A stretch of 64,000 bases of DNA from Rhodothermales bacterium (GTDB lineage: Bacteria; Bacteroidota; Rhodothermia; Rhodothermales; Bin80). The notes below the pieces were generated by a model. The model did not search any database. It saw nothing but the letters and a program-made list of their open reading frames with translations, and was not told where the DNA came from. Shown in pieces: positions 36,795-64,000 of this stretch (within the stretch, counting starts at the first letter, position 1; every line of letters starts with the position of its first letter). The stretch spans positions 547 to 64,546 of the forward strand of contig JAJECE010000079.1 of assembly GCA_022822185.1 (NCBI GenBank). The letters run 5' to 3'. The position numbers and the translations under genes are program-made.

Positions 36795-37129
36795 CATTCA
36801 TTCCCGCCTCTGTACAGGATTCTGAATAATGTGCAATGGGGAAATTCAAGGGCTGCTAAGTGTTGCATAAGTGGGGATCTGATGTGGGGTTTATTCTTCA
36901 CGAAACCGCGATAGGCGGTTGTGGCAGGGGACTAGTCGGGGTACATTCATGTGCAGGTGCATACATCCGTACAATCCCGAATCAGGGAATTAAAGGGCGA
37001 TATTTTGGCATCCGCCACCGCCTGAAAAATATTTTTACTCTGAAACTCTTTTAATCAAATATTATTTGGTATATTAGGGCATCCGGTTGAGGGTCAACCG
37101 GTTTAACTATAAACAAAGCAAATTTAAAA

Positions 37130-40717: not shown

Positions 40718-40850
40718 GATATCGAACAGATTTTCCGCCGTTCACATGGAACTCAACCGGTTTAAGATCAACCATCTAAAAAGTTATCCCGGATGCCCTC
40801 TACTTCATTGTTTGGCATCAAAATGGGGGGAACCTCCAGTTTTGCGCCCA

Positions 40851-42683: not shown

Positions 42684-42800
42684 TTACCAGAGGCAAAGGC
42701 TTGATGGCAGGTCAAAAAAAAGGCAATCTAAATTCGTTCTATGGGGAACGGCCGACAGGTCAAGGAAGTGTGCACCATGATTCTGTTCCGGGATACTTCG

Positions 42801-46077: not shown

Positions 46078-48069
46078 ATGAGTAAAATCAATATTGGCCG
46101 GGCGGTCCAGAATATACTGCCGAGGACGAATTCTTACACTCCCCTCATTGAGGTGATTGTTAACGCAATTGAGTCCATTGAGGAGACGGATACCGAAAGT
46201 GGAGGCCGCGTTGAGATACGGGTGCTGCGGAGCGAACATTCCGAGTCTGGAACTGCGCTTCACATGGTTGAAGGGTTTGAGGTCAGCGACAATGGGATCG
46301 GGTTTTCGGAGGATCACCGCGAATCGTTTGATACGCTGTACACGGATCAAAAAATCAAAAAAGGGGGCAGGGGCTTTGGGCGCTTTGTTTGTCTCAGACA
46401 TTTTGATGATTTCCGGGTCGAAAGTGTTTACCGGGCGGATGAAGACAGATTTATGGCCAGAAAATTTTCAGTGGGCCGCAGGAATGAGATCATTGAAAAT
46501 GAGGTGATAACGGAGACCCGAACCACGAACACAGGGACGATGGTTCGCCTTTGCGGGCCGATGGAGGGGACTTCGTTTGATCTGCGGCTGGACACCATTG
46601 CGAAAGTACTTGTACAGCGTCTTCTTCCGTTTTTGATTGAAGAGGGAGATTCGTGTCCAAAAATCGTTCTTTCCGAGAGAGATGGAAGTGAGGCGATCAT
46701 TCTAAATCAATACCTGCGATTCATTGAGGAGATTGAGGAAGGCAGTTGCGGGTTCAAATTGCCGGTAATCCCCCCGCAGGAAGAATTCAGAGTTCGCATA
46801 TTCAAGATTTACGAGCCGAGGAATCAGAAGAACCAGATCAGTCTGGTCGCGCACCGGCGTGAGGTTTCGGAAACTCCGCTCAGGAGATACATCCCCGAAT
46901 TTGAGGATGCATTTTATGAAGACGGCGATGATGAGCAGAAGTATATCGTGAAGGCATACGTGTTCGGCGATTATCTTGACCGCCATGTATCTGTGGAGCG
47001 TGGTGGATTCCGGTTTGGAATGGATCCGGAAATGCATGCTCCCATTGGAAAACGAGACATTGAGATCAATGCGGCGGAAATTGCCCGTGAAGCCATCGGC
47101 AATGATTTTCTGGACAGGAAGGCGATCAAGCGGGAGTATGTTGAACGACATGTTGAGGCGGAGGCACCGTGGTTCGACAGTGTTCTGGATGAGTCGGATT
47201 TAACCGAGCTTCGGTGGAATGCGTCTCCGGATGAGATTGAGAAATTTCTTCATGCGGAGAAACTCGCACAGGAAGCTGAAATTCGGGGACGAATGGATGC
47301 AATTGCAGCGGAGGGGAGTCTGGACAGGATTGGGGGCGATGTTGCGGAAGTGGTCAGAAGGGCATCCGATAAGCACCGGGACGATCTGGTCCGCTATGTG
47401 GCATTTCGCGGGGTGATTCTGGAACTGCTGGGGCAAAGTCTTGCGAGAGATGAAGAGGGTGAGTATTTCCTTGCGGGTGCGGTGCATGACATTCTTTTTC
47501 CACGGAGCAGAGATCCAGACTGGATGCCGTTTGATCATCATAATTTATGGATCCTTGATGAGCGGCTAAATTTTGCAAACTATCTTGCCTCCGATCAGGA
47601 TCTCGGAGATGTTGATCCTGATAGAGGAGCAGATCTGACCGCCTATGATCAGCGGCTGCTTTTCAGGGGAGAGGATGTGGAGGAGAATCCCGTCACGATC
47701 ATTGCACTCAAGTATCCGGGGCGTGAAGGTCTGGTGAAGGATGGCACCGCAGAAAACCCGGTAGATCAGGTCATAAACTATGTTGAAGAAATTCGAGACG
47801 GAAGCGGTGAAACCTCTGCGGAACCTCCAATTCGGGTTCCCCGGAACACGCCGGCCTATGGCTACATTATCTGTGATCCATCACCGGAATTTGAGAAATG
47901 GCTCATCAACGGTAGAAATTTCACATCTATGCCGGATGGCCTTGGTTTCTTTCACTGGATCAGCGGAAGCAATCTTTACATTGAGGTTCTCAGTTGGGAG
48001 AAAGTTCTGAAGGATGCAGAGATGCGGAATTATTTTTTCTTCAGAAGATTAAGAGGGCGCTCCATTTAA
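46078..48069 (+). CDS. GHKL-superfamily (HATPase_c, MORC/paraMORC-like) ATPase with a C-terminal PD-(D/E)xK-like region
   Basis: Bergerat-fold motifs are present: N-box EVIVNAIESIEE, G1 SDNGIGFS, G2 KKGGRGFGRF. The C-terminus has GADLTAYD...VTIIALKYPG...YGYIICD, arranged like a restriction-endonuclease core. Confidence 0.7.
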   Translation: MSKINIGRAVQNILPRTNSYTPLIEVIVNAIESIEETDTESGGRVEIRVLRSEHSESGTALHMVEGFEVSDNGIGFSEDHRESFDTLYTDQKIKKGGRGFGRFVCLRHFDDFRVESVYRADEDRFMARKFSVGRRNEIIENEVITETRTTNTGTMVRLCGPMEGTSFDLRLDTIAKVLVQRLLPFLIEEGDSCPKIVLSERDGSEAIILNQYLRFIEEIEEGSCGFKLPVIPPQEEFRVRIFKIYEPRNQKNQISLVAHRREVSETPLRRYIPEFEDAFYEDGDDEQKYIVKAYVFGDYLDRHVSVERGGFRFGMDPEMHAPIGKRDIEINAAEIAREAIGNDFLDRKAIKREYVERHVEAEAPWFDSVLDESDLTELRWNASPDEIEKFLHAEKLAQEAEIRGRMDAIAAEGSLDRIGGDVAEVVRRASDKHRDDLVRYVAFRGVILELLGQSLARDEEGEYFLAGAVHDILFPRSRDPDWMPFDHHNLWILDERLNFANYLASDQDLGDVDPDRGADLTAYDQRLLFRGEDVEENPVTIIALKYPGREGLVKDGTAENPVDQVINYVEEIRDGSGETSAEPPIRVPRNTPAYGYIICDPSPEFEKWLINGRNFTSMPDGLGFFHWISGSNLYIEVLSWEKVLKDAEMRNYFFFRRLRGRSI

Positions 48070-48649: not shown

Positions 48650-49078
48650 ATGATCAATACACTATCACTCTCACGTGAACTCACCAAGTCGGGGCTTCAA
48701 CGAGAGCACGCTGAGGCCATTGCAGATGTCGTTGCGAGAGCGGTTGTTCAGCACAACGGGAATCTTGCAACTAAAGAGTTTGTACATACCCGTATTGTTG
48801 AGATACAGAAAGGCACAGATGGTAAAATTGATACTTTACGTGTGGAAGTCGGCGATTTACGTGCGGAAGTCGGCGAGTTGCGTGTGGAAGTCGGCGAGTT
48901 GCGTGTGGCAATCAGTGAGTTACGCAGTGATATGGAGACCCAGATAGCTTCAGTTCGCGTGGAAATCAGTGCTAGCGAGGCACGAATCGTACGCTGGTTA
49001 GTGGGAGTCGCCATAGCTTTAGGCATCTTTGAGGCATTAGGTGATGTCCTGCCCAGCCTGATATCAGGGCTTGGTTAA
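48650..49078 (+). CDS. DUF1640-like coiled-coil protein with a C-terminal membrane anchor
   Basis: LSRELTKSGLQREHAEAIADVVARAV...ATKEF, then heptads VEVGDLR/AEVGELR/VEVGELR/VAISELR, then the hydrophobic tail RWLVGVAIALGIFEALG. Confidence 0.6.
   Translation: MINTLSLSRELTKSGLQREHAEAIADVVARAVVQHNGNLATKEFVHTRIVEIQKGTDGKIDTLRVEVGDLRAEVGELRVEVGELRVAISELRSDMETQIASVRVEISASEARIVRWLVGVAIALGIFEALGDVLPSLISGLG
48842..48925 (+). repeat. Four 21-nt tandem units (two nearly identical) inside 48650-49078
   Basis: The units are gtggaagtcggcgatttacgt / gcggaagtcggcgagttgcgt / gtggaagtcggcgagttgcgt / gtggcaatcagtgagttacgc. Confidence 0.85.
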
Positions 49079-49360: not shown

Positions 49361-51475
49361 TTAGCGGTTTCTCTGTTTGACCACATCCGCGACCAACTCA
49401 CTCTGTTTTCCGTAACTGGCAATAAATAATGATTTGCGAGCCCGGGTACAGGCCACATACAGGAGGGAACGCGCCTTCCGGTAAATTTCTTTCTTTGCCA
49501 TCTCATCCTCTGCCTCTTTGAGTACGCCTTGATGCGGGAGGTAGCGTTTATTTGCACTTGCCACAATCATATGATCGTATTCCAGTCCCTTCACACGGTG
49601 CATTGTAGCGAGCCGGATCCCAGGAATAGATGCACGGTCATTGTTCTTTTTGAGTTGATGGACCTTGATTCCCCGAGCAGTGAGTGCTCCCTCATAACGT
49701 GCCAGTTCGTGCAAGGTTGGGGCAACAAGGCAAATATGATGAAGGTGATCCTCGTTGCATTCCAGACTGTTGATGTACTTGATGATGCCTTCCTGTTCTT
49801 GAATCTGGGTACGGTAGGTTTTTATGATCGGTGGTCTTTCGCCCTGGATCAATGAAGTATATCCCTTCAGCGTATCCCGCTGCCCGTCCATGTCATCGTA
49901 CGGGATCCCCCTCAGAAATCCGATGGCCCAGTTACGTACTCGCTCCGGGGTGCGATAATTAATGCGCAGCCGTCGGCCGCGTCCACGGATATTAATACCA
50001 CAGTGGGATAAAATCACCTTCCGTCCATAAATGCGCTGGTGTGTATCGCCGGCAAGGAGCAGATCATTTTGTCCTTCGGGGAGGATTGCACGGATCATTC
50101 GGAGGGATGCCTGGCTCATGTCCTGTGCTTCATCAACAACCACACTGCAGTAGCCTGGTGGATCGGTCTGGAACTGCTCCACCAGTTGATGTTGAAGATC
50201 ATAGGGGTCTGTAATCCCCTGTCGTTTGAGTTCGTCACGGTAGGCTTCAAAGACCTTCCAGAGTTGCCCGCGAGCGGTTCGCGTTAATCGCTGGCCACGC
50301 CCCCGGCGGGATGCGCGAAGATATTGCTGCAGGGACTGCAATCCGCCTGCTGCAACGACGGCTTCAAATTCATCTCGAATAAAATGCTGAGAATAGGGGA
50401 GGTCATCCATCATATCCATGGCGATCCTCCACGCTTGATTCGCCAGTTCTTTTTCGCGACTGAAATAGGTCATGCGATCCGGCAGACCACGCTTTTTGGC
50501 CTGGATTCTTACCCAGGAATCAATATTGTCCACCTCAATACGCTTGAACACGTCCGGAGCGCACATGCGCCTCAGATTATTGGAAATATCGGAGGCCAGG
50601 TTACTGTTGAATACAAGGAATAAAATCCGGTCACGCTCACCGGTAAAGATCTCACTTGCGAGGTGATGGGCCCGGTGCATGGCAACCACGGTTTTACCAG
50701 TCCCTGCACCTCCGAGTACCCGTATTGGGCCGTTGGCGTGCATTTTGACGATACGTTCCTGAGATGGATGCAGGTAGATTCTCCATTCGGATAGTGGTGC
50801 GTCAATCATTTTCTGGAGATCTTCATCCGTGATCGTCACAAACTGGCGCCTGTTTTCGGGGTGATTCAGTTCATTTTCCTCATCATACTGGCGGGCAAGC
50901 TCGGTGATTTCTTTGAGGATGTCCTCATAGGATGTACCGGAGGCAAGGTCATCCAGCGCAAGCCAGACATCTTCGGGCAGTACATTGGAGTACTCCCCAA
51001 GGTCATGGACGGTTTTAAAACTCCGCACTAAATCCAACTGCGCCTCTGGCACTCCCAGGCGCAGAAGTTGGCGGTCACGGTAGGCAGAGAACAGGGTTTG
51101 CTCCTGTTGTTCTTCCCCGGGCTTATCCTCGGAGGATTCAGAGATCTGGATCGTCTGATAGACCCCCGTGTACTGGTTCTTCTCAAAACGGTGTGTGCGT
51201 GCCCAGGCATAGGCGGCATCATGTACATCCACATGCAGGCAGATGACCCGGTTACTCTCTTTTTCCTGATATGCAATGATGCGATACTTCAAGTCCAGCC
51301 GGATGGAGCGCATCCTGCTGCTGGTAGACAGGACGATCTTCTCAAAATTGAAGCCGCTGGAGTGGGGGTTCGTTTGATAGCGGCTCATGAAACTGAATAC
51401 TTTGGATTTTTGCGCGGTGGGGAGTCTTTCGGCAGCGGCCCAAAAGGTTGATGTCTGCATGAGAGCAACATTCAT
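49361..51475 (-). CDS. SF1 UvrD/Rep-like helicase with an N-terminal RelE/ParE-like domain
   Basis: Walker A LGGAGTGKTVVAMH, motif II VVVDEAQD, and C-terminal ATMHRVKGLEYDHMIV...LLYVACTRARKSL. The first ~100 aa (ERLPTAQKSKVFSFMSRYQTNP...RSIRLDLKYRIIAY...VICLHVDVHDAAY) follow the RelE/ParE toxin-fold pattern. Confidence 0.8.
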   Translation of the reverse strand: MNVALMQTSTFWAAAERLPTAQKSKVFSFMSRYQTNPHSSGFNFEKIVLSTSSRMRSIRLDLKYRIIAYQEKESNRVICLHVDVHDAAYAWARTHRFEKNQYTGVYQTIQISESSEDKPGEEQQEQTLFSAYRDRQLLRLGVPEAQLDLVRSFKTVHDLGEYSNVLPEDVWLALDDLASGTSYEDILKEITELARQYDEENELNHPENRRQFVTITDEDLQKMIDAPLSEWRIYLHPSQERIVKMHANGPIRVLGGAGTGKTVVAMHRAHHLASEIFTGERDRILFLVFNSNLASDISNNLRRMCAPDVFKRIEVDNIDSWVRIQAKKRGLPDRMTYFSREKELANQAWRIAMDMMDDLPYSQHFIRDEFEAVVAAGGLQSLQQYLRASRRGRGQRLTRTARGQLWKVFEAYRDELKRQGITDPYDLQHQLVEQFQTDPPGYCSVVVDEAQDMSQASLRMIRAILPEGQNDLLLAGDTHQRIYGRKVILSHCGINIRGRGRRLRINYRTPERVRNWAIGFLRGIPYDDMDGQRDTLKGYTSLIQGERPPIIKTYRTQIQEQEGIIKYINSLECNEDHLHHICLVAPTLHELARYEGALTARGIKVHQLKKNNDRASIPGIRLATMHRVKGLEYDHMIVASANKRYLPHQGVLKEAEDEMAKKEIYRKARSLLYVACTRARKSLFIASYGKQSELVADVVKQRNR

Positions 51476-54400
51476 TTGTCGAGGAGTTTGAGGATTTCGG
51501 GAATATTGATGGCCGTCAGTTTCTCCAGTTCAAAGCAATTCCATCCGTCACGCTCACACACGGAGCGATCCTCCCAGCATTCTCCATAAAGGAGCGCCAC
51601 GTTCTGCGCGGGCCATGCGATTTCGGCAGTGGTGAGGATCTCGTTAGCGGGATTGGTAATCTCAAAATATATCTCAGGTGCAGGGGCATCATGATCTGCC
51701 AATTTTTCAAGCAGCGGCAGATAGGAGGAATCCAGAACTTCGTCATTCAAAACATTGCTCCATGCGTTTGACCTACCGGGATGGATTTCCTGGATACTCA
51801 GTGCTTCGTAGTGCTCATTCCTTTGAATCCCGGATGCACAGAAAAAGCCAGTGCGGGGATGAATGAACTGGAACAGGTTCATTGCCCGCAGGAATCCATT
51901 CCAGATCGGTTGAAATGTGATCTCGGACTGTGCACGGTCATCGATATAGGCAAAAACCCGCAAAGCGGCAGGATCAATTGTTTCGGAATTGGCGAGATTG
52001 ACGGCGACGCAGCTGGTGTGCAGTTCTTTTTGATCACGGATCCAGTACGCTCCGATACGAGCGCCTTTTCGCATGAAACAGTCCTCCATGAACCATTCCG
52101 GGGCAAGATCGCTGAGCTCGTCCGCGGAGGCGGTCTCAATGACATTCAGTACGGCATGACAGTACGCCAGTGCCTGCCATTTTTCGGGGTCTGGGTCTGT
52201 CAGATATGCTTTTAGGAGATCAAAACTTCCTGCCCCTTTCACGTTGTTCTGCTGTGACAGACTTCCCAGATCTGATTCAAATTTTTTGATAAAACTGTCA
52301 AAATTTCTGAATGCACTGCGCCGGGAGTCAAGCGGGAACAGATCTCCGTTTCGTTCGGGCTCATCCTGTTTGAGGTCATTCCATGTCAGGGACCAGACTA
52401 GGTAGCGTCCGGAAGCCAGAATTGCCATGCGTTTCAGTGTGTCATCCGCGAATTGATCCCGATGATACTCGAAGCCGTCCGTAAAGACGGCAACAGGGAG
52501 CGCGTTCGAGTTGGGGTCCGGTGTGAGCAAAAAATCCGGTTTAGAGGGCACCTGTACGCCTTTACTCCTGTCCAGAAGAACCTGACATTCAACGGTCCAG
52601 ATCTCGTTACCGACTTTGAGTTCGTATAATTTATCGGTGCCGCGGTGGATTGGTGACAGACTGGCTGAGTGCCATTTTTTCAGATGTTCAAGGAACCTCT
52701 GTTCCAGTGCACTGTCTACGAGTGGATGGACAGGAATATCATCCAGGCTTCTAGTCTCATCCAGACCGTCTCCTTTGTTCACAATGCTTTCCAGGATATC
52801 AATAGCAACCTCTCTGGAAATCGCCCCTCTATGGAACGAGTTGCGGTATGCAAAGAGGCATCGATAGCACCCGTCTTTGGCCGGATCCTCTTTGCATCGG
52901 CATTTTTTTAGATCATCCAATGCAGGCCTCAGGACTTTCTCAAGAATTGTTTTGTCTGTGAGGAGATCCCTGAGATGCCCGGTTCCACCTGGCACGGTGT
53001 CGTAGAGATAAATGAATGTACGCCGAATCTCTTCGCCGGGGACCGGTGCATCCTGCGTGATCGTTTGCAGGTGGTTTACCTGACCGCGAAAATGCTCTTT
53101 CAGCCCCATGAAAAGGGCCGCGGAGAATGATTCGGCCTGGAGTCCGGTTTCGGTATGATCTACAACCGGTAAGAGGATGCGGATACATTCGGATTCAAAG
53201 TTATGATACAGAGACAGGGAAACTCTTGGCTCTTTGTCTTTGTCCCGATATCTGCAGTAGTATTCATGGGGAGAAGTCTCATTTTCCAGTTCCACTCTGC
53301 CGCATTCGGTGCAGATACGGAATCCTGCAATGATTTCTTCCTCGCCGGCGATCTTTACCCGGGATCCATCGGAGGATGGATCTCCGTGGTTGATGAAGGT
53401 GAATGCGGCCCCTTGAATAAAGTCAAATCCAAACGGTACCTCGGAATGTCGGGCTTTGTAGGCGATTTTCACATCTTCGGGATCAAATTTTACATGGGTT
53501 CGAATGACAGGGCTGATGTGCTGTCGCTCGTCACGCCGGTCATCAATCCGGTTGTTACTTTCGTGGGAGGTGGATCTGGCGGTGGAGAGGCAGACCAGTT
53601 TTAGTGTCTGTCCCATATCTCCCCATCCATCAGAGTTACATTGCGGACATTTGGCAGTTCGTTCTTCTGACTCGGGTTCATGCCAGGAGCAGTCGGGACA
53701 GAACCGCCAGGTCTGGATGTCATTTTTGTCAAAGCGTATCCCGTTGATGCGAACCTTTTTCCCGTTCGCATAGAAGTAATTCCCAGGGGCGAATTCCCGT
53801 ATGGCCCGCTGACCGGGCCGTTCAAAGGTTTCGGTCAGCGGCTTCTGCTGTTCCTTTTCTTTTCGCTGCAGGATTGTGGAATGCAATTGGACACTGCTCT
53901 GGGGGAAGGCATAGTTCGGAAGGATACCTTCGTCCGAGAGAAAATTGAACACTTCTTTGTCACCGATATGAAATCGGAGGCTTCGCAGTCCGGCCCGGTG
54001 ATTCTGGAGGTCTTTCAGATTCTTTTCATAGTTCTCATCACGCGGTGCATGTTCATAGTCTTTGATCCGTCTGCTCAGGCGCTCAATGCGGTTATGCAAC
54101 TCCCTGCGTTCGGCATACTGCTGAATAAATGCTTCCGTGACTCGATATCTCAGGTTGGTTTTAGAGGAGGCATCCGGGTAGAAGAAGTGAGTCAGAGATT
54201 CAAGCAGTTCCGGTTGCAGGTTGCCAAACAGTTCCTTGAACCCCTGCGCCAGCTCATCAGCATGAGTGGTAACATAATTCAGCCAATTGAACGGGAATTT
54301 CCCATCATCCTCGTTGGCCAGAGAACTGAGAATAATCCTCAAATTATCTGGAACGGCCGCATTTTTTGAATGGGCAACCCACATATCCAGGCTATAGGCG

Positions 54401-57400
54401 GCCATTTGGCGCTCCAGTACGGCAGGTGCTTTTAAGAATACCCCAGGTACAGTCACTTCACCGCTGATCATATCCTGCGGTTCGGCAAAGAAATAGAGGT
54501 CATGGGGCTGATTGGTTGCAACCGCAAATCCAAATGAATTTCCATCTTTCCGCCCGGCCCGTCCGATCCGCTGGACATAATTTGCCTGTGACGGCGGGAT
54601 GCTGCACAGAAATACCGTTGACAGGTCTCCGATATCGATCCCCAGTTCCAGGGTTGGGGTACAGGAGACGATATTCGGATCCCAGGGGTGTCGCTCCTTG
54701 CGCATGAATGTCTTTTCAATCTCTTCCCGATGCCCGGCGGTCAGGAGACCGGTGTGCTCTTTGGGAACGAATCGGCAGACATCCCCGGCCCCGTAGAGTG
54801 CGCGGTAGTAGTCTATATCATGATCCTCTTGAATTTTGAATTGTCCCCGGCATTTGTGGATCATACAGGGCATCGCCTGCCAGATATCGTGATCCTGTGC
54901 AGGGACGCTGACATCATACGAACAGGTTTCACAGGCGAAACGGGTCACTTTTGTGGTAACCGTGAGTTTGTTCGGCGCAACTCCCCAGACGGTGTGCTGA
55001 TTGGCGGAGTACGGCTTGAGGATGCCGGCAGGTGCAGCATCAATGATATCCTTGAGTGCCGCATCAAATCCGGCGGGAGTCAAGTTTTCTTCTGCGACCA
55101 AACATTTATGCCCCCATCCCTGGACCCAGGAGTTGTTTCTGCTCCCTGTGAGGGGAAGAAAGTTTTTCGTAGATTTAGTGGATAAGAAGCCGTGACGCGG
55201 GCTGTTGGGCTTGAATCGGGGTGCCCATTTTTGCTGGAGATAAAGTTTGGTTTTCCCCAGCCCCTGGATATAGTCTTTGAGTGCGGGATGTGCAATGCCG
55301 CCACCGGTTCGGAGTCGATAGAGGAGGCCGGTCAGAAATTGGATCAAGTTCTGTTCTGTGATGGATCCCAGCCCTTCGTGATATTTTCCCCTGATGGCGG
55401 GCAGGATTTTCGCCGTCCAGTTTCTCAGTAGATTCTGATCCACCGAGACGGCGGCGGAGTGGGTGTTTTCGAGGGTGCGTCCTCTGCGGGCACGAAGTCC
55501 GAGGTTGTCAAAGACTTCCCATTTGAGGCGTTCTGCCACGAGGTAGGGCAGATTTGAGTTTTCGGGGAGTGTTCCTCTTTTGACCAGTACTCCATAGTCA
55601 TCCATCCAGTCCATATTGGGCGCAATGAATGTGCCTACAAAGTCTGCATCTCCCAGGTTTTCACGCTGAGATTGCACAAGCCCGTTTGCAATCGCTCCAA
55701 TATTCCGATCTTCATCCAGGTTTTTGAGGTATTGCAGGATTGCTGTTCGGACGCTAAAGGCATACGTCCGGGCCTCAAAGTAGCCCGCGCGGTGCGCAGC
55801 ATCCTGCACGGAGTCGGAGAAGGTCAGGACCTTCTTATCGTCATTGTAACGGGATGAAAAGGTTTGCCCTAACGCTGCGGACAGCAGCGTTGCTCCCCCC
55901 GCACCGAATATGTTCGGCTGATTGGACTCTCCGCAGTGCGGGCATTCAGGCCTTCCATTCTGTCCGAATTTCAGGGAGGGGATATGAACGGGGAGGAGGG
56001 CTTCTTCCGTTGAGCAGTCTGAGCATTTTGTTGCACGGGCATTCTGGGGTTGCAGGCATGCTGGACAGAGGCGCCAGTTTTCCGTGAAGTTTAAGTCTTC
56101 TCCTGGGTAAATGACCTTCAGTTCAGCGGCGGCGGACTTGCTGAAGTAGGTGCGATAGATCTCCTCAAGGTTCGTGATAAAGGGATCGGTATCGGTTTCC
56201 TGCGCCGTCACCCATCCTGCGGTCCCGCACTTGATGCAGGAGGCAAGCGGAAGGTAGTGCGGGGATTCGGTTGAAGCCAGATCGGCATCCCATGCTAATC
56301 GGGGATTCGGATCCACGGAGACGACCATCCTTTTGAGTTCACGCATCCAGAATTGGATTCTTACATCCAGCAGGGGCCGGTCTGCGGTTTTTGGGTCTCG
56401 GGCATGGCTGACCAGAGACAGAAGGCTTTCCAGAAGAAGTTGATGATCCGCGCCTTCTTTCGCATCTTCTTCCCCGGGCAGTCTCCATTGCCCGGCCACT
56501 TCTGTCATTAGCAGGGTATTGGGGCCGACCAGTTGTACTAGGTTCTTAAAGGCACCGTGCTGGTGCAGTTTTTTGCCAAGATCTTGTCTCCATTTAGGCG
56601 TATTGAGCGTCTCTTCGGAAACTTCACCTCCGAACCATGCCTTGTACTGTGCCTGGAGGTAAGCCTCACTGGATTCAAACTGATCTGACCGAAGTAACTC
56701 ATCACTGGTTGGAAACTTAACATACGATGTCTGTAAATCTGTCAGATAATCTCTCGGATCCAGCCGTGCCTCGGTAATGATTGCATCGTCATCAAATTCG
56801 GCATCAAAGATCGTTCTGGCATATTCACGCAGTTTGTTACCGGATCCGGTACCCAGCGTGGCAGACGTTCCAACGGGGCAGATGGTTTTGCACTGAAGGC
56901 GTGTTTTGAGCCTCCGCAAAAGGCACGCCAGATCGGTTCCCTGCGCTCCGTCAAACGTATGGAGTTCATCCACGACCACATAGCGCAGGGTATCTGGATG
57001 GTTCTTCTCCCAGAGGGGTTTATCCTTTGGCCGGATCAGGAGATAATCCAGCATCTTGTAATTGGTCAGCAGCAGATCAGGAGGCGATTCGCGCAGCTTA
57101 TGCCGATCTGAAATGATATTGGACTCGGTCATACGGGAGTGAGAACTTGCACCGAGTCCACCGACATAAAGGCCTGCGGTAACCACTGCTTTGAGGCTGG
57201 GGGTCTGGAAGATGAGTCTTGCAATCCGCTTGGCCTGATCTGCCGCAAGTGCATTCATCGGGTAGATGAGGATTGCCTTGATCCCGGACTGCCCGGCGGT
57301 CTGCCGGCAGTAGTCCAGAATTGGAAGCAGGAAGGACTCGGTTTTCCCGGACCCGGTGCCGGTCGCCACGATCGTCGGTTTGGGCGGGTCCGCGCCCAGC

Positions 57401-57648
57401 CGCTCAAATGCACGCGTCTGATGCAGGTAGGGGGGAAAGCCCAGTGGGATTTCCGGGAAGGGCTCTTCGTTCGAGGTGCTTTTCACGAACGGGAGCTGGA
57501 AGGACAGATAGCTTCCCCGGATGGCTTCTTTGTTCCTGATGAACTGATCCAGCGCCTGCGCGAGTGCCGGCGTGGTAATCCGGTAGCGTGTCCGCAGGAA
57601 ATCCTGGATGGTTTCGTGGACTTCCCGTCCCACAACGGAAGGAATCAT
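51472..57648 (-). CDS. Giant DEAD/DEAH helicase + DUF1998 (MrfA-type Zn) + Vsr/DUF559-like endonuclease fusion (DrmA+DrmB-like or DruE-like)
   Basis: VATGTGSGKTESF (Walker A, aa 94-106), VVVDELHTF, LTFSDSVQDAAHRAG, TLELGIDIGDL, QRIGRAGR. DUF1998 signature YLYDTVPGGTGHL and GCYRCLFAYRN. Then PDFLLTP...LPVAVFTDGFEYHRD...LKRMAILASGRYLVWSLTWNDL. ATGA overlaps at both ends. Confidence 0.85.
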   Translation of the reverse strand: MIPSVVGREVHETIQDFLRTRYRITTPALAQALDQFIRNKEAIRGSYLSFQLPFVKSTSNEEPFPEIPLGFPPYLHQTRAFERLGADPPKPTIVATGTGSGKTESFLLPILDYCRQTAGQSGIKAILIYPMNALAADQAKRIARLIFQTPSLKAVVTAGLYVGGLGASSHSRMTESNIISDRHKLRESPPDLLLTNYKMLDYLLIRPKDKPLWEKNHPDTLRYVVVDELHTFDGAQGTDLACLLRRLKTRLQCKTICPVGTSATLGTGSGNKLREYARTIFDAEFDDDAIITEARLDPRDYLTDLQTSYVKFPTSDELLRSDQFESSEAYLQAQYKAWFGGEVSEETLNTPKWRQDLGKKLHQHGAFKNLVQLVGPNTLLMTEVAGQWRLPGEEDAKEGADHQLLLESLLSLVSHARDPKTADRPLLDVRIQFWMRELKRMVVSVDPNPRLAWDADLASTESPHYLPLASCIKCGTAGWVTAQETDTDPFITNLEEIYRTYFSKSAAAELKVIYPGEDLNFTENWRLCPACLQPQNARATKCSDCSTEEALLPVHIPSLKFGQNGRPECPHCGESNQPNIFGAGGATLLSAALGQTFSSRYNDDKKVLTFSDSVQDAAHRAGYFEARTYAFSVRTAILQYLKNLDEDRNIGAIANGLVQSQRENLGDADFVGTFIAPNMDWMDDYGVLVKRGTLPENSNLPYLVAERLKWEVFDNLGLRARRGRTLENTHSAAVSVDQNLLRNWTAKILPAIRGKYHEGLGSITEQNLIQFLTGLLYRLRTGGGIAHPALKDYIQGLGKTKLYLQQKWAPRFKPNSPRHGFLSTKSTKNFLPLTGSRNNSWVQGWGHKCLVAEENLTPAGFDAALKDIIDAAPAGILKPYSANQHTVWGVAPNKLTVTTKVTRFACETCSYDVSVPAQDHDIWQAMPCMIHKCRGQFKIQEDHDIDYYRALYGAGDVCRFVPKEHTGLLTAGHREEIEKTFMRKERHPWDPNIVSCTPTLELGIDIGDLSTVFLCSIPPSQANYVQRIGRAGRKDGNSFGFAVATNQPHDLYFFAEPQDMISGEVTVPGVFLKAPAVLERQMAAYSLDMWVAHSKNAAVPDNLRIILSSLANEDDGKFPFNWLNYVTTHADELAQGFKELFGNLQPELLESLTHFFYPDASSKTNLRYRVTEAFIQQYAERRELHNRIERLSRRIKDYEHAPRDENYEKNLKDLQNHRAGLRSLRFHIGDKEVFNFLSDEGILPNYAFPQSSVQLHSTILQRKEKEQQKPLTETFERPGQRAIREFAPGNYFYANGKKVRINGIRFDKNDIQTWRFCPDCSWHEPESEERTAKCPQCNSDGWGDMGQTLKLVCLSTARSTSHESNNRIDDRRDERQHISPVIRTHVKFDPEDVKIAYKARHSEVPFGFDFIQGAAFTFINHGDPSSDGSRVKIAGEEEIIAGFRICTECGRVELENETSPHEYYCRYRDKDKEPRVSLSLYHNFESECIRILLPVVDHTETGLQAESFSAALFMGLKEHFRGQVNHLQTITQDAPVPGEEIRRTFIYLYDTVPGGTGHLRDLLTDKTILEKVLRPALDDLKKCRCKEDPAKDGCYRCLFAYRNSFHRGAISREVAIDILESIVNKGDGLDETRSLDDIPVHPLVDSALEQRFLEHLKKWHSASLSPIHRGTDKLYELKVGNEIWTVECQVLLDRSKGVQVPSKPDFLLTPDPNSNALPVAVFTDGFEYHRDQFADDTLKRMAILASGRYLVWSLTWNDLKQDEPERNGDLFPLDSRRSAFRNFDSFIKKFESDLGSLSQQNNVKGAGSFDLLKAYLTDPDPEKWQALAYCHAVLNVIETASADELSDLAPEWFMEDCFMRKGARIGAYWIRDQKELHTSCVAVNLANSETIDPAALRVFAYIDDRAQSEITFQPIWNGFLRAMNLFQFIHPRTGFFCASGIQRNEHYEALSIQEIHPGRSNAWSNVLNDEVLDSSYLPLLEKLADHDAPAPEIYFEITNPANEILTTAEIAWPAQNVALLYGECWEDRSVCERDGWNCFELEKLTAINIPEILKLLDK

Positions 57649-60600
57649 AGCCGGTTCTCCCGTTTTGCTTTTTCAAAGAACGCCCATGCTTCGCGGTAAT
57701 CTTCTTCGCGGTCGCACTTGTCAAACGGGGCATGGAACTCTATCGTCCGCTCTCTGGGTCCGCCCGGCAGCGTATCATCCATAAACGTATGGGTAACGAT
57801 GCCTTCGGTCATATCTTTGATGTCGTTCCATCCGAGGGGGATGCCTGTTACCGAGCTTGTGGGGGTATGAATTCCGAATGAATTCTTTTTGCCGGATTTG
57901 GTGCGCGGGATGGGGCTTTGTCCGGTTTTCTTGGAGAACACAATACGCCCCCGGGTATCATAGTACGTTTCATTCTCGTAGGATTGCAGGATGGGGAACT
58001 GGATCCGGTAGAGGGTGAGGAGTTCTTCGAGGGTGAGGCCGAGTTCCAGAGCGTGCAGGGTGTCAATTTCGATGAGTGCCTGCCGCCGCGCATAATCGGT
58101 GCGGAGCGGACTGTGCCATGACCAGGGAGACTCCAGTCTGCCAAACCACTCCGCATCCAGCCGCGGATCCTGCCGGGACCAGGGAAGCGGCCTGCGCTGT
58201 GTCATTTCCGGGGTGCAGGCATCCCATAGAGTGCGGTAGTCGGTGGTCAGGCACGAAAGCCCCAGGATCCTTGCAGTGGCCGCCGGGGAAGCGTTTGAGA
58301 ATGGAAGTCCGGCAAAGAAAATTGGATGTAAGTCTGATTTAGTACCGATTTTTACCGCCATATCCGTCACGACCGAGAGAACCGTAAAAAGCATACTGAT
58401 CAGATTTTTCATATTCTTCATGGCTACGCTACCCACCGAATCAATATGTCCTGTTCCCGGCGGAACGAGTGCGGGAATCAACGTCCGTTCACTTCCAGGT
58501 CCCAATCTTTTCCGCATGGCCACCCGGTACTCGTCGGTTACGCGGGTCCCCCAGAGCGTGGTGGGGGTTCTGCGGGTATAGAGTTCCGGGGCACATGCCC
58601 GCACATAGTTGGTTCGCGGGAGGTAGGTTTCGGGGAGCGTGGTCAAATCAATCCTTGAATAATCACTGTTCGTCTTGCATCCTTCGTTCGGGGTCTGAAA
58701 AAATGGGGTTCCGACAAAGATATGCGGTCCGGAGAGGATCCAGCCGGCGGCCTCGTCGGGGAAGCCGGTCTGCCGGCGGATCGTGCCCTTTTTCTGTGCC
58801 CCTGTTTCGTGCCACATTGCGGTCATTTTATAATCCAGATCCCGCATTCGTCGCGGGGCCTGTGCGAGTTTCTGGAGGATGCCGGCCAGCTGCCGCGCGT
58901 GTACGAGGGGGAGCCGGGCCTGGCGGGGCGGGGTTCCGGGGGCATCGTAGAGCAGGGCGTAGGTCTGCAGTTCTTTTTTGGTGACCCGGATCACGCGGTG
59001 CCGGTGTTCGGACAGCTCCCACTGGTTGCCCTTGGTTTTGATTCCCGGCACCGGCCCGAGGCCGTCGTGCTTCAGGGACTTGATGGCGGTCAGCGGTGAA
59101 TATAGGTTCGCCATGGAGATGAAGACAATCTCATCTTTCTTCTGTCCGTAGATATTGATGCTGAATTTAACCCGCGTATCCACCTCTTCAAACAGATGCA
59201 GCACATTTTCAAACTGCAATCGGTAGCGGAGTCGTGGATAGAGAACTTCCCGGAGTGTTTGTCCCCGCGCTTCATCATAGACGGAGTCGGGATGCAGGAG
59301 GCCAACGGCGCCGCGGCTGACGGCCCAGCTGGTGCAGAGGAACGCTTTGTAGAGATTGGTCTGCATCCCTTTGAGGAGCGGATAGTTCTGCATTGCATTG
59401 AGGAAGGAGAGCTGTCCGCCGACGGCTTCATAGGCCGACAAATAATACTCCCGGCGGCCGGGCCGCTCCAGCCATGCGCCCCGGAGTTTGGCCGTTCGGG
59501 ATGCACTCAGTTTCTTGGTGACGAAGCGGGGTTCGGTGTCGCCGATAATATGTTTTTCGATGAAGTCCGGCTTGCGCCAGGGCGGGTTTCCCAGCACCAC
59601 ATCAAAGCCGCCGTGCTGTTTGAACTGATCGGCGTACTCCAGCTGCCAGTGATGAAACCGGTGCTGGCGGGCCAGTTTCTGGACCAACTGCAGCCGCGGC
59701 CGTGCGGCAATGAGGGAGTTTATATCGACAAAGCCCAGTGCATCCCGCTCGGCATCTTCGCTGAAGAGTGCATAGGTTTCGGCGGCGTGTTTGCCGGCCA
59801 GAATCTCGGCGAGATCGCCGAGGTATTCTTCGCGGTGAGGCAGGAGGGGGGCCTGATCGATGGGCCAGTACCAGAGGGCGCACCAGTAGTCCATGACGAG
59901 TTTAAGCCGCTGGTAGGCACTGATATTGCCGTTTTCTGGCGTGAGGATCCGCTGGAAGTGGGCTTGTTTGGTGCGTGTGGAGGAGATGCCGGAGGTAGGC
60001 AGGGCGGCACCGGTCCCTTGCTGCACGGATGGATGGCCGGTTCTGGTGCCTGCTTCGCCCTCCCCATGAGGCCCGTCTTGCACAGGAATTCCGCCTCGCG
60101 CATCCATCCCGCCTTGCGTATCGATCCCACTTTGTGGGTAGATGGGAAAGGGATCGGTGGTGACTTCTTCCAGCCGGATCAGGTCCCGGATATGCTGTTC
60201 CCAGAGACGGTCCACGATGGCGGCGAGCGTGATCAGTTGCTTTGTCTCGACTTCGGTGATCGGCTTTGTGAAGGTTTTCCGCCATGCGGCGATCTGCCGG
60301 ATGGCCTCCCCGGCCAGTTGTCGGACGACTTTGTCTTTGTACATGGCCATTCCGGGATCGCCGACCAGGAAGTGGTAGACCTTGTCTTCGGGGTACGCTT
60401 CCTGCATCCCGGAGATGACGGCCTGCACAAAGGAGTCGCCGCTGCGGGCCTGCTCGTGGAAGGGCAGATCGGCGGGCGGCTTCTCCCACCATTTGCCCTG
60501 CTGCAGCACTTTGCAGGAGTAGACGCGCCGCCAGGCGCCCACGAGCGAGTTGCCGCACTTGAGCTGATTGCCGAACCACGGCACGAACCCGCCTTCGACC

Positions 60601-62525
60601 AGCGTATTGAGCCAGATGGAAATTTCGCCCAGTTCCACGGCGACCGGGTTCAGGTCTACGCCGTAGACATTGTTGTCGGCAAAGTACATTTTGACGCGCT
60701 GCAGTTCGGTCTTCCACCGTTCCGGCGGCAGCACCTCGCCCCGCTCCCGGGTTTTCCGGGTCAGATAGGCTTCGGCGAGCTGCGAGACAGCTTCATTCAG
60801 AAAGGCCGCCGATCCCATGGCGGGCTCGCAGACGGTGATCTGCAGGATCTCGTCCGCGGGCTTGCCCTCCAGGACTTCGTTCAGTGCGAATCGGGTGACG
60901 CACCGGGTCAGGCTTTCGGGCGTGTAGTAGGAGGCGGATTCTTCGCGGGCGCGTCCGGTGAGGCGGTAGATGAAGGTGCCTTTGGGGTGGCTGCGCAGGG
61001 TTCCGTCGGGATTGGTGACCCGCTCGCTCATCTCATAGTGCTTTTCCAGAGCATCCTGATTCACGAAGTAGGCGGCATCCAGCACGTCGGGCGTTGTCTT
61101 TGCGGGCTTGACTTCATACAGGTGTTCGGTCGCAATAAAGCCGCGGTAGCTTAAGAGCGCCTCGTAGACGGCTCCCAGGTGGTTTACACTCAGATGCCGG
61201 TACGAGATGCGTCCGCGCCCCTGCCACTTTCCTTTTTTCTTTTTCTGAAAGTCCTCATGCCCGAGCGACATCATCTGCAGGATCCGCTGCCAGCTCTGGT
61301 TTGTGATCCGGATTGCATTCAGGCGCGGGGTCTTCTCGGGGTCAAAGAGGTCGCACTGCAGGGGGGAGATGGCAAAGGTGTGGACCCCTTCCTGCAGCAC
61401 CTCCTGCTGCGTTCCCTGCTCGTCATAGCCTTCATAGACGAGTTCAAAGAGCATCTTCAGGGACTCATCAAAGAAGCTCCCTTCGGCGCTCCCGTTCTCG
61501 TGGAGCGAGACCAGTTCCAGGTCCCGCAGTTTTTCCAGGCTGTAGCCGCTGCGGTAGGCTTCGGCGTTCATGGGCAGGTACCCCAGTTCTTTCCGCGCTT
61601 CCACATTGAACAGGAAAAGCAGCCGGTACATGTAGTACAGGCATTCCAGCGTCAGTTCGTCCACGAACGCATCCGTATACGGTCCGTGCCAGTTTTTCCG
61701 GGCCCGCATAGACGACAGATACTCATTGCCGAGGATTTCAATGGATTCGCGGAGGGCGTATTTGAGACTGCCGGACACGCCGGTGGCGTGCCGGAGGGCA
61801 TGCTCCTGGAGTTCCTCTTGATAGGAGGGCCCGGTGCCGGGACACAAGGTGGATTTATGGAGGAGCATGGTGAGCAGTTTCCAGGTCTCAATGCGGGGCA
61901 GCTGTTCATAGAGTCCATCCCAGTCAAAGCGCAGCATGCGTCCGGCACCCCATTTGTCCCGCTCCAGAAGCACCCAGGTCTGGAGTCCGGTGAGCAGGAT
62001 CCAGCGGGGCGGGGTCTGGATGGAAAAGGCTTTGGTGATCAGGCGCTGGAAGGATTCGCTTTGTTCCGGTGGAACAAGGGACAGCAGTTCTTCACCGCTG
62101 CCGTCTGCATCTGCTGCTTCGACGATCCACATGTAGGGTTTTTGGAAGGCGTCCAGCTGTGTCAGAACCTGCAGGTGCATGCCGGCATCCAGTTCAATCC
62201 GTTCAGGACTGCGCGGATAGCCCAGCAGATAAAGCAGGCGGCGGGTCCATGTTTGCTGGATGGCCGCCCGCTCCGATGCAGGTGCGCTGCGAAATTGCTC
62301 CCGCGCAGTCAGATAGTCCGTGCCCAGTGCTTTGAGGGGGATCCAGGGCCGGGCCTCCGCCTCTTCGGAGCCCCCGTGTCTAGACACCTCGAATTCCTCC
62401 GCCTTCCAGCGCTTCTCGAAGTCTTTGATGGACTCCGGCAGGATGGCATGCCAGTAATGGTCGGGGTAAAACTCGTTCTGGTTGACGAGTCCGGTGAAGT
62501 TAAATTCCATGAGATGATTCGGCAA
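57645..62525 (-). CDS. Large gamma-class N6-adenine DNA methyltransferase (Eco57I/PglX/DrmMI-like)
   Basis: Motif I ITVCEPAMGSAAFLNEA (60801-60830). YGVDLNPVAVELGEISIWL. FHHWQLEYADQF...GGFDVVLGNPPW (NPPW at 59577-59588). The listed start at 62525 is TTG. An ATG at 62510 (MEFNFTGL) is likelier. Confidence 0.85.
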   Translation of the reverse strand: MPNHLMEFNFTGLVNQNEFYPDHYWHAILPESIKDFEKRWKAEEFEVSRHGGSEEAEARPWIPLKALGTDYLTAREQFRSAPASERAAIQQTWTRRLLYLLGYPRSPERIELDAGMHLQVLTQLDAFQKPYMWIVEAADADGSGEELLSLVPPEQSESFQRLITKAFSIQTPPRWILLTGLQTWVLLERDKWGAGRMLRFDWDGLYEQLPRIETWKLLTMLLHKSTLCPGTGPSYQEELQEHALRHATGVSGSLKYALRESIEILGNEYLSSMRARKNWHGPYTDAFVDELTLECLYYMYRLLFLFNVEARKELGYLPMNAEAYRSGYSLEKLRDLELVSLHENGSAEGSFFDESLKMLFELVYEGYDEQGTQQEVLQEGVHTFAISPLQCDLFDPEKTPRLNAIRITNQSWQRILQMMSLGHEDFQKKKKGKWQGRGRISYRHLSVNHLGAVYEALLSYRGFIATEHLYEVKPAKTTPDVLDAAYFVNQDALEKHYEMSERVTNPDGTLRSHPKGTFIYRLTGRAREESASYYTPESLTRCVTRFALNEVLEGKPADEILQITVCEPAMGSAAFLNEAVSQLAEAYLTRKTRERGEVLPPERWKTELQRVKMYFADNNVYGVDLNPVAVELGEISIWLNTLVEGGFVPWFGNQLKCGNSLVGAWRRVYSCKVLQQGKWWEKPPADLPFHEQARSGDSFVQAVISGMQEAYPEDKVYHFLVGDPGMAMYKDKVVRQLAGEAIRQIAAWRKTFTKPITEVETKQLITLAAIVDRLWEQHIRDLIRLEEVTTDPFPIYPQSGIDTQGGMDARGGIPVQDGPHGEGEAGTRTGHPSVQQGTGAALPTSGISSTRTKQAHFQRILTPENGNISAYQRLKLVMDYWCALWYWPIDQAPLLPHREEYLGDLAEILAGKHAAETYALFSEDAERDALGFVDINSLIAARPRLQLVQKLARQHRFHHWQLEYADQFKQHGGFDVVLGNPPWRKPDFIEKHIIGDTEPRFVTKKLSASRTAKLRGAWLERPGRREYYLSAYEAVGGQLSFLNAMQNYPLLKGMQTNLYKAFLCTSWAVSRGAVGLLHPDSVYDEARGQTLREVLYPRLRYRLQFENVLHLFEEVDTRVKFSINIYGQKKDEIVFISMANLYSPLTAIKSLKHDGLGPVPGIKTKGNQWELSEHRHRVIRVTKKELQTYALLYDAPGTPPRQARLPLVHARQLAGILQKLAQAPRRMRDLDYKMTAMWHETGAQKKGTIRRQTGFPDEAAGWILSGPHIFVGTPFFQTPNEGCKTNSDYSRIDLTTLPETYLPRTNYVRACAPELYTRRTPTTLWGTRVTDEYRVAMRKRLGPGSERTLIPALVPPGTGHIDSVGSVAMKNMKNLISMLFTVLSVVTDMAVKIGTKSDLHPIFFAGLPFSNASPAATARILGLSCLTTDYRTLWDACTPEMTQRRPLPWSRQDPRLDAEWFGRLESPWSWHSPLRTDYARRQALIEIDTLHALELGLTLEELLTLYRIQFPILQSYENETYYDTRGRIVFSKKTGQSPIPRTKSGKKNSFGIHTPTSSVTGIPLGWNDIKDMTEGIVTHTFMDDTLPGGPRERTIEFHAPFDKCDREEDYREAWAFFEKAKRENRL

Positions 62526-64000
62526 TCAGGACGGCAGAGACATGGATGTAGGGCTCCGCTTCCATGGTCATGGAGGTTTGAATCCAAAGCCGGAACTCCT
62601 CAAACCGCCGCCGGATTTTTTCCAGTTCCTTCTGCCTGCGGGAAAACTGCACCTGCGCAATCCCGCGCTCCGGCTGAAAGGTCTCTTCGATGTAGGTCTG
62701 CTGGCGGTGTTCAAGCTCGCGCAGATCCTCCAGGTGCTGATTCAGGGAACGCGTCAGGTCATCCTGGAACCGGGTTCGATCCTGAAGGGCATGCGCTTTT
62801 GCGCGGTCCACGGCATCCGGGACCCGCTGCTGTGCAATCTCCAGCAGATCCGAGGTGTTGTGTCCCTGATTGGGGAGTTTGTCGGAGCGGAGGACCGGGT
62901 GGAGTTCCGAGTCTTCAAACCGGCGGATCTCAAAGGAACCAGGGGGCCCGGATCTACGGCCGGTCATCAGGTACCACCGCTGAAAGACGGTCACGCCCTT
63001 GCGGTTGGGCCAGAGCACGGTAATCAGATAGGAGAACGTGTCCGGGGTCATGGAGGAAAGCCAGATGGCGGGGGCTTCCAGGCGCTTGAAGGACAGGCGG
63101 ATCTTGTCGGTCATCCACTCCGTGAACGGGTGGACAGGCCACAGGAACTGGAGCTCCGGCCAGGTATGCTCAAAGGCGCGGCACCGCGCAATGGATTTCA
63201 TCACGGCCGCTGGATCCGAAGAGAGGACAAAGCGGCTCCCTTTCGGGCGCACCGCGACCGGCAGCTGGTTCACGACACTTTTCAGCACGGTCTGTCCCTG
63301 CTTATTTTGGGGGGCCACAATGATGCGCTGATTTTCGTCCGAGCAGGTGATGTCCAACTGTGCGCCGATCTGTCGGGCCCAGTTCTGCCGGATATAATTC
63401 AGGGCGGCCTTCGAGTAGGCGTAGTCGGTTTCAAAGAGGGAGGGGAGTTCGCCGGTCTCCGACTCTTCAGCGACAATTAGATTTGGGGGAGGATTTAGAA
63501 GGGCGGCAAGCGGATCAAAGTCCGGGTCGTCCTCCGGGTTGCGGCTGCGGGCCGTAAGCCGTTTTTCGGCCTCCTCCACAGTCAACTTCTCCTCCATGGC
63601 CCCGGCGGTGAGTTTTTCCTCTTCCTCAATCTGATAGACCCCCATCAGGGTCGCGGGATCGCCAAGATTCTTTTCCGCCTGCTGTTCTTTCTCAATGAGC
63701 AGTTCCAGGATCCGCGCATCCCCCTTGAATTTTTCATTCCCGCTGTCGGTGATCAGATAGACAATCTGAGGATTGCGCTTCTGTCCATAGCGGTCAATCC
63801 GCCCGTTGCGCTGCTGGAAGCGCATCAAAGACCACGGAATATCAAAGTGGATCAGCCGGCGGCAGTGATAGTGCAGGTTAATCCCCTCGGAGCCGACATC
63901 CGTGGAGATCAGAAGGCGCACCGGAGACTGATCCTGTCCGAACCGGTCCACGACCTCCTGCTGCTGCACATCGGAGAGCGTGCCGTGGAGAATGTCCACG
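62500..64000 (-). CDS. SNF2-family helicase, C-terminal part (5' end lies beyond the window)
   Basis: The reading frame is open to the window edge. Helicase motif V LISTDVGSEGINL and motif VI QQRNGRIDRYGQ, followed by a ~400-aa C-terminal extension. Confidence 0.8.
   Translation of the reverse strand, partial: VDILHGTLSDVQQQEVVDRFGQDQSPVRLLISTDVGSEGINLHYHCRRLIHFDIPWSLMRFQQRNGRIDRYGQKRNPQIVYLITDSGNEKFKGDARILELLIEKEQQAEKNLGDPATLMGVYQIEEEEKLTAGAMEEKLTVEEAEKRLTARSRNPEDDPDFDPLAALLNPPPNLIVAEESETGELPSLFETDYAYSKAALNYIRQNWARQIGAQLDITCSDENQRIIVAPQNKQGQTVLKSVVNQLPVAVRPKGSRFVLSSDPAAVMKSIARCRAFEHTWPELQFLWPVHPFTEWMTDKIRLSFKRLEAPAIWLSSMTPDTFSYLITVLWPNRKGVTVFQRWYLMTGRRSGPPGSFEIRRFEDSELHPVLRSDKLPNQGHNTSDLLEIAQQRVPDAVDRAKAHALQDRTRFQDDLTRSLNQHLEDLRELEHRQQTYIEETFQPERGIAQVQFSRRQKELEKIRRRFEEFRLWIQTSMTMEAEPYIHVSAVLIAESSHGI

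Follow-up and report, generated by a model that had tools for sequence, protein, structure and literature searches.

The armC gene and its operon

At the end of a 64,000-nt stretch of DNA from a Rhodothermales bacterium (assembly GCA_022822185.1, contig JAJECE010000079.1, positions 547 to 64,546 of the forward strand; the whole stretch is referred to as the window in the following), four genes resemble the ARMADA type II anti-phage systems, whose gene names armA, armB, armC and armD we use here. The central gene armC encodes a protein of 2058 amino acids (aa), in which a helicase, a DUF1998 module and a Vsr-like domain are combined in one chain (Table 1).

The armC reading frame starts with ATG and shows zero internal stops over its 2058 residues, consistent with the original prediction, an earlier annotation of this DNA, which had described a single intact open reading frame (ORF). 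More than 7900 database proteins match ArmC; among the matches listed, lengths range from 2050 to 2130 aa at a query coverage of 99–100%, and the last 439 residues are kept in 119 of 120 homologs. Since more than 100 homologs of similar length align across 99–100% of the query, a fusion caused by sequencing error as well as a hidden frameshift or stop splitting the ORF, named by the original prediction as what would speak against it, are excluded on the basis of the sequence comparison, and armC is considered a genuine full-length gene.

Pfam recognized DEAD (6e-20), Helicase_C (2e-10) and MZB/DUF1998 in ArmC, each exceeding the gathering cut-off, which places helicase and DUF1998/MZB in one polypeptide. 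Because the DEAD match ends at aa 266 and Helicase_C begins at aa 965, about 700 residues separate the RecA lobes, as had been noticed before, and this insertion contains five CxxC motifs (aa 471, 528, 542, 569, and 906). Bell et al. (2025) placed BrxA-like, zinc beta-barrel and MarR-like domains between the RecA lobes of ArmC (PMC12458937). Moreover, all motifs quoted in the original prediction were found at or very near the places assigned to them, apart from a small error for QRIGRAGR, which had been put near aa 1050 (see Table 1 for its actual location). The DUF1998 signature, likewise recovered, comprises YDTVPGGTGH (aa 1549–1558) and the cysteine cluster KKCRCKEDPAKDGCYRCLFAYRN (aa 1581–1603), followed by PDFLLTP (aa 1704–1710, nt 52519–52539), LPVAVFTDGFEYHRD (aa 1717–1731) and RMAILASGRYLVWSLTWNDL (aa 1740–1759, nt 52372–52431); in the far C-terminus, AEIAWPAQNVALLYGE (aa 2008–2023) and RDGWNCFEL (aa 2033–2041) are present.

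All four genes lie on the same strand, and 4-nt overlaps occur at both junctions of armC, i.e., between the armB stop and the armC start and between the armC stop and the armD start. For armB, an ORF finder sets the start at TTG 62525 (57645–62525); judging from the sequence and the alignment to E. coli ArmB, the ATG at 62510, overlapping the armA stop, is the probable start. The best PADLOC matches of ArmB were REase_MTase_IIG (7e-236) and DrmMI (8e-46). ARMADA type II was described as a strict four-gene array of the BrxHII/RapA-like SNF2 helicase ArmA, the PglX-like methyltransferase ArmB, the YprA-like helicase ArmC and a GajB-like helicase (PMC12458937). For comparison, the validated cluster of E. 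coli O157:H7 (Sakai ECs_5261-5264) was retrieved by its O-island coordinates and compared gene by gene. ArmA is 36% identical over residues 480–949 of the E. coli protein, and ArmB 41% end to end with GNPPW conserved. ArmC shares 36% identity with ECs_5263 over 2110 aligned columns, and its C-terminus alone 28% over 430 residues (E 1e-39). ArmD and ECs_5264, both 704 aa long, are 38% identical from end to end, N-terminal extension included. This extension of about 230 residues can be aligned to that of the E. coli protein and matches no Pfam family at E ≤ 1; the published support for a RelE-like domain at the ArmD N-terminus is an HHpred value of 0.0085 (PMC12458937). Mutation of ArmC K110 or D234, of ArmB N971 or of ArmD K266 abolishes defence in E. 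coli (PMC12458937), and these residues correspond to K102 and D227 of ArmC, the N of GNPPW in ArmB and K261 of ArmD in the locus described here.

The order armA-B-C-D also recurs at two further loci, L001 and L002/L003 (Desulforhabdus amnigena), whose ArmC homologs are 60% and 38% identical, respectively, and the identities to the comparison ARMADA II loci run parallel across all four proteins. The nearest genomes found in a scan of the genome collection were two Rhodothermales metagenome-assembled genomes with 94–95% identity, in both of which the locus ends too soon upstream to include armB; a megablast of armC against all complete E. coli genomes gave zero matches. In the D. amnigena locus (300–9997), a DDE transposase splits armA, and small genes are found between armB and armC (three, encoding DUF4160, DUF2442 and one unknown protein) as well as between armC and armD (one). 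The published "strict" ARMADA II order therefore tolerates insertions.

Altogether, these comparisons make it very probable that the 2058-aa protein is ArmC, encoded by the central gene of an ARMADA type II anti-phage operon armA-armB-armC-armD. The locus appears to be chromosomal, since the remaining window carries housekeeping genes (carotenoid synthesis, ClpX, BamA, TamB, Mla, Tgt, and IspH). The fused helicase-DUF1998-Vsr architecture and the operon lack the novelty implied by the original prediction, as both had received their name by 2025, when their protection of E. coli against phages was demonstrated as well (PMC12458937). What we describe here is an ordinary, intact member of that family.

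Table 1. Location of the ARMADA type II genes, the domains of ArmC and further features in the window.
Feature	Position	Strand	Description	Evidence
armD	49361-51475	-	704-aa UvrD/GajB-like helicase	Pfam UvrD-helicase and UvrD_C, PADLOC GajB
armC	51472-57648	-	complete 2058-aa YprA-like helicase-nuclease (predicted), stop codon included	ORF list and translation
armB	57645-62510	-	~1621-aa PglX/DrmMI-like N6-adenine methyltransferase; probable start	Pfam Eco57I and N6_Mtase
armA, C-terminal ~499 codons	62500-64000	-	SNF2/BrxHII/DrmD-like helicase	Pfam Helicase_C, NCBIfam and PADLOC DrmD
RecA1 lobe, aa 76-266	56851-57423	-	Walker A GTGSGKT 97-103, DELH 227-230	Pfam DEAD
Inter-lobe insertion, aa 267-964	54757-56850	-	~700 aa	between Pfam DEAD and Helicase_C matches
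RecA2 lobe core, aa 965-1034	54547-54756	-	motif VI QRIGRAGR 1026-1033	Pfam Helicase_C
MZB/DUF1998, aa 1509-1598	52855-53124	-	zinc-binding domain; cysteine motif 1581-1603	PF09369, 3e-12
D1, aa ~1645-1760	52369-52716	-	predicted Vsr-type PD-(D/E)xK nuclease domain	
D1 candidate catalytic residues			E1649, D1705, T1723-D1724, H1729, plus D1736, R1740	Vsr alignment and conservation
D2, aa ~1766-1958	51775-52353	-	conserved helical and beta domain, no fold assigned	
D3, aa ~1959-2058	51475-51774	-	terminal domain, alpha-alpha-beta-beta-beta-alpha-beta-alpha	AlphaFold2
tRNA-Leu(CAA)	36710-36795	+	directly before a block of non-housekeeping genes ending in ARMADA	
Three consecutive ankyrin-repeat proteins	38795-45236	-	640, 610, and 811 aa	Pfam Ank_2, 1e-123 to 1e-137
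663-aa ORF	46078-48069	+	N-terminal GHKL/HATPase_c	3e-7
142-aa ORF	48650-49078		coiled coil	
210-aa ORF	10834-11466	+	GIIM, group II intron maturase-specific domain	4e-8
629-aa ORF	3033-4922	-	polyprenyl synthetase and squalene/phytoene synthase domains	

The C-terminal domains of ArmC

The last 439 residues of ArmC were modelled by AlphaFold2 with 35 homologs (mean predicted local distance difference test, pLDDT, of 88; predicted template modelling score of 0.73), and the model splits into three domains, D1, D2 and D3. In D1, a first helix leads into a three-stranded sheet, after which two strands, a second helix and a last strand follow. It was also modelled by itself (pLDDT 87.5), and a Foldseek search of this model against the PDB gave TnsA as best match (1f1z_A; probability 0.97, E 0.056, TM-score 0.53), followed by TnsA 1t0f_B (probability 0.94) and further by VRR_NUC, BsoBI (TM-score 0.49), DrdV, PaqCI and FAN1. 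A search of the D1 profile against the PDB sequences returned chance matches only. In four of 26 homologs, the D1 segment matches the related Pfam family MTES_1575 (PF18741) with a best E-value of 0.001.

An alignment to Vsr was obtained by hhalign, in which GVQVPSKPDFLL...LPVAVFTDGFEYH of D1 pairs with DASLPGRPDFVV...CVIFTHGCFWH of E. coli Vsr, at a probability of 50–67% against the single Vsr sequence and of 80% against an enterobacterial Vsr alignment. The homolog search for Vsr delivered only sequences of at least 80% identity among the 120 matches listed, so that the Vsr profile gained little diversity. According to this alignment, D51, T63 and H69 of Vsr equal D1705, T1723 and H1729 of ArmC, and H64 maps to D1724. 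The aspartate at this position forms a DG-type motif, which we presume to be like the DUF559 pattern quoted in the original prediction. A global hhalign of D1 with Vsr fails, likely as a consequence of the inserted three-stranded sheet, which is probably also why the blocks around E1649 and D1736..R1740 fall outside the local alignment. By eye, Vsr TAIEKRL (E25) resembles SALEQRF (E1649) of D1, and the Vsr block D..R...L...GW.V..VW resembles D1736..R1740...G.Y.VWS. Across 92 homologs covering 26–97% identity, E1649, D1705, D1724, G1725, H1729, D1736, R1740, W1756 and D1758 are invariant. The earlier proposal of a Vsr/DUF559-type nuclease fused in cis is supported by the PD-(D/E)xK fold matches, the alignment to Vsr and this conservation. 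As far as the model and the homologs tell, D1 agrees with a functional Vsr-type nuclease in its fold, in the order of its motifs and in its pattern of conservation, and it is predicted to be active. Judged by sequence motifs, D1 is Vsr-type, but by profile score it does not count among the canonical members of the families PF03852 and PF04480.

Of the approximately 300 further residues that the original prediction had left as an unknown fold, only the part corresponding to D2 keeps this status. In the model, D2 consists of a helical bundle followed by a beta-beta-beta-alpha-beta unit, and its comparison with D1, D3 and Vsr gave no similarity. D3 shows a weak Vsr-like "GW" motif, aligning by hhalign with the Vsr segment LQELGWRVL at a probability of 5–22%; it has no D...H motif, is missing from a subset of homologs and is, based on model and alignment, probably a degenerate Vsr-like module. 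Both domains are conserved and have no evident active site. For ArmC in general, Bell et al. (2025) described a predicted active Vsr-type PD-(D/E)xK nuclease at the C-terminus, beyond which many of these proteins carry EEP-like and Vsr-like domains that are inactivated (PMC12458937).

Competing readings and a proposed mode of action

Several points have to be set against reading the protein as an ArmC with an active nuclease. The window end cuts armA, leaving only about half of it inside, and the complete operon is thus not seen. PADLOC labels ArmC as DruE, with DruE1 (2e-115), DruE3 (2e-102) and DruE2 as best matches. Regarding D1, the Foldseek statistics are weak, with no match reaching an E-value of 0.001, Vsr structures are absent from the top 50 matches, and the whole three-domain model found nothing below E = 1 in the PDB; the modelling check suggested by the original prediction yielded PD-(D/E)xK matches for D1 modelled by itself. 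The suggested Pfam check for PF04480 turned out negative, as neither this family nor any other, including Vsr (PF03852), matches aa 1620–2058 even at E ≤ 1. The hhalign match to Vsr spans just 28 columns. Finally, the mutants described by Bell et al. do not affect any nuclease residue of ArmC (PMC12458937), and host protection by ArmB methylation, part of the mechanism proposed below, is a proposal and not established.

The choice of mutants and the missing match to any Pfam nuclease model would equally fit an alternative that we consider rather unlikely, albeit the best surviving one: the protein would be ArmC, but D1 would act as a DNA-binding or mismatch/modification-sensing module which regulates the motor, so that destruction of phage DNA would depend on another part, e.g., a nuclease of the host or the putative RelE-like N-terminus of ArmD. 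The Asp in place of Vsr H64 could be taken in the same sense, as could the Vsr-like domains of DruE in Druantia types I and II, which are predicted to be inactive (PMC12458937). However, E1649, D1705, D1724 and H1729, the full acidic/His set of the Vsr metal site, are invariant in all 92 homologs, a pattern expected for a working site, the Asp at the H64 position yields the DG-type motif presumed above to be DUF559-like, and Bell et al. also term the Vsr-type domain predicted active (PMC12458937).

Far less credible is a variant of class I DISARM, in which DrmA and DrmB would be fused and a Vsr-like nuclease would replace the PLD nuclease DrmC. Such a variant could explain the DrmD-like and DrmMI-like neighbours (NCBIfam DISARM_DrmD, 4e-36; PADLOC DrmMI, 8e-46) and the weak PADLOC matches of ArmC to DrmA (to 3e-15), but every NCBIfam DISARM score is far under its cut-off (e.g., 124 versus 610 bits) and the DruE/ArmC-type similarity is stronger by about 100 orders of magnitude. 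As correctly pointed out in the original prediction, DrmA, DrmB and DrmC are separate genes in DISARM. Here, helicase and DUF1998 occur in a single ORF, the operon contains no DrmC/PLD gene, and it includes ArmD, which DISARM lacks; on these grounds and due to the sub-threshold scores, the assignment to DISARM was rejected. In the literature, the systems form a separate monophyletic class nearer to Druantia than to DISARM (PMC12458937), and whether to speak of a DISARM variant is a matter of nomenclature no less than a biological one.

The least probable option, namely that the protein is DruE, the large Druantia helicase, with an inactivated Vsr remnant at its C-terminus as in Druantia types I and II, agrees with the PADLOC label and with E. 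coli DruE (9tu7; E 3e-46) being the closest solved structure in the PDB copy searched, which holds none of ArmC, but was rejected based on gene context and extent of similarity, as no Druantia partner (DruA-D, DruM/F/G, or DruH) adjoins armC and its neighbours are orthologs of ArmA, ArmB and ArmD, the best listed stretches of the DruE models stop at about aa 1624 and the PDB match does not extend beyond the helicase lobes, E. coli ArmC, unlike DruE, aligns along the entire protein, and the catalytic-type residues of D1 are invariant and not degraded as in a Druantia remnant. PADLOC (2023) assigns the label because its library contains no ARMADA model, version 2.0.0 being older than ARMADA.

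For the protein as ArmC, the analysis shows what the four genes are, how the domains are laid out and that the candidate catalytic residues are conserved. The following mode of action is a proposal building on E. coli, where ARMADA II acts against many phages but leaves the membrane undamaged and does not shut down metabolism, i.e., is non-abortive, and where defence depends on each of the four genes, on the ATPase motifs in ArmA, ArmC and ArmD and on the ArmB motif NPPW (PMC12458937; 10.1101/2025.09.22.677730). ArmC represents a superfamily 2 motor of the YprA/MrfA family, in which about 700 residues of presumably zinc-rich accessory domains lie between the RecA lobes, followed by an OB-CON-DUF1998 "canopy," the putative Vsr-type PD-(D/E)xK nuclease and two more conserved domains. 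ArmB could methylate the host DNA and thereby mark self, while ArmC would load onto unmodified or structurally aberrant phage DNA in concert with ArmA, the SNF2 motor, and ArmD, the UvrD-like protein, both of which might help in loading or processing. ArmC would then translocate on and unwind this DNA with ATP, and its fused D1 nuclease may cut the DNA being threaded, so that the infection could be cleared and the host cell survive. For DruE, biochemistry revealed a helicase-coupled nuclease in the form of an autoinhibited dimer, which is switched on at junctions of duplex and single-stranded DNA, and by analogy we regard it as fairly probable that ArmC is a helicase-coupled nuclease as well. 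The nuclease activity of D1, its DNA substrate and a methylation-based discrimination of self and non-self are inferred.

Genomic surroundings and relation to known systems

Within the operon (window positions 49361–64000), the GC content at third codon positions (GC3) is 0.735 for the partial armA and 0.72 for armB, and 0.57 for each of armC and armD; host genes show values of 0.51–0.58. Three other ARMADA II loci exhibit just a mild GC3 gradient, with identities running parallel for all four genes. It appears quite improbable that the operon is a mosaic, in which armA and armB were acquired or exchanged apart from the host-like armC and armD, and, as a separate matter, D2 is equally doubtful as a new ArmC-specific regulatory fold. 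A mosaic operon, if real, would mean that ARMADA systems can exchange a "specificity" module (methyltransferase and SNF2 helicase) and an "effector" module (helicase-nuclease) with one another.

At lower window positions than the operon, a tRNA-Leu(CAA) gene directly precedes the block of non-housekeeping genes, a position in keeping with the islands at tRNA genes that have been reported from ARMADA carriers. When the window was searched for another copy of the tRNA-Leu 3' end that would delimit such an island, none turned up, no integrase was seen in the window, and a terminator scan downstream of armD was negative. Between this tRNA gene and the operon, three ankyrin-repeat genes are situated, of which the product of 811 aa matches the PADLOC candidate-defence model PDC-M72A (3e-100) and "Ankyrin". 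Neither PADLOC nor NCBIfam gave a match for the 663-aa ORF with a GHKL domain, which might be a further gene of a defence island and behind which the 142-aa ORF with a coiled coil is located. In the remaining window, the 210-aa ORF matches GIIM alone, without a reverse-transcriptase domain, and is probably a remnant. Apart from this, the 629-aa ORF represents a fused carotenoid-pathway enzyme, and its neighbours encode a carotenoid biosynthesis protein and an amine oxidase resembling phytoene desaturase.

As a discovery, the locus matters little, and its residual value lies in family-level questions on ArmC and in the minor GC3 step. It provides a clean, complete and divergent ArmC ortholog, which is 36% identical to the tested one and reveals constrained residues of the nuclease domain (E1649, D1705, D1724, H1729, D1736, and R1740).

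The closest known counterpart is ArmC of E. coli O157:H7/NCTC 12900 (WP_000937974.1), which is of similar length (2113 versus 2058 aa) and collinear at the identity given above. Both share the gene order armA-B-C-D and the order of domains, in which a Vsr-type domain with PDF/PDY...F(T/L)DGFxxH is part of the C-terminal region. In comparison to this protein from a different phylum, the C-terminal region described here is about 55 residues shorter, and while ARMADA II of E. coli sits beside Druantia III and Zorya II, the present operon adjoins housekeeping genes.

DruE of Druantia type III (9tu7) belongs to the same YprA-derived clade and likewise contains a helicase core divided by a large insertion, DUF1998 and a C-terminal nuclease. 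However, the nuclease of DruE is PLD-type and that predicted for ArmC PD-(D/E)xK (PMC12458937; 10.1101/2025.09.22.677730), the partner of DruE is DruH and not ArmA, ArmB and ArmD, and its sequence similarity to our protein is limited to the RecA lobes. Class I DISARM (DrmD, DrmMI, DrmA, DrmB, and DrmC) resembles the operon in its upstream SNF2-like helicase and large PglX-like methyltransferase, its YprA-family motor and its DUF1998 module; there, motor, DUF1998 and PLD nuclease are encoded by separate genes, whereas here motor and DUF1998 are joined in one polypeptide with a predicted Vsr-type nuclease, and a UvrD-like gene is added.

On the level of single domains, D1 has the PD-(D/E)xK fold in common with Vsr (E. 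coli b1960) and its DUF559/MTES_1575 relatives. D51, T63 and H69 of Vsr are matched, and the motif blocks S-x-x-E-x-R-F, P-D-F, F-T-x-G-x-x-x-H and D-x-x-x-R...G-x-x-x-V-W follow in the same order. In contrast to Vsr, D1 carries an Asp for H64 and a three-stranded sheet between helix 1 and the PDF strand, and it is fused to a motor of 1600 residues, while Vsr is free-standing. The founding helicase and DUF1998 architecture is represented by the DNA-repair helicase MrfA/YprA (6znp; PDB sequence match with E 6e-16), which, at about 750 aa, has neither the inter-lobe insertion nor a fused nuclease and acts together with MrfB in repair and not in defence (PMC12458937).

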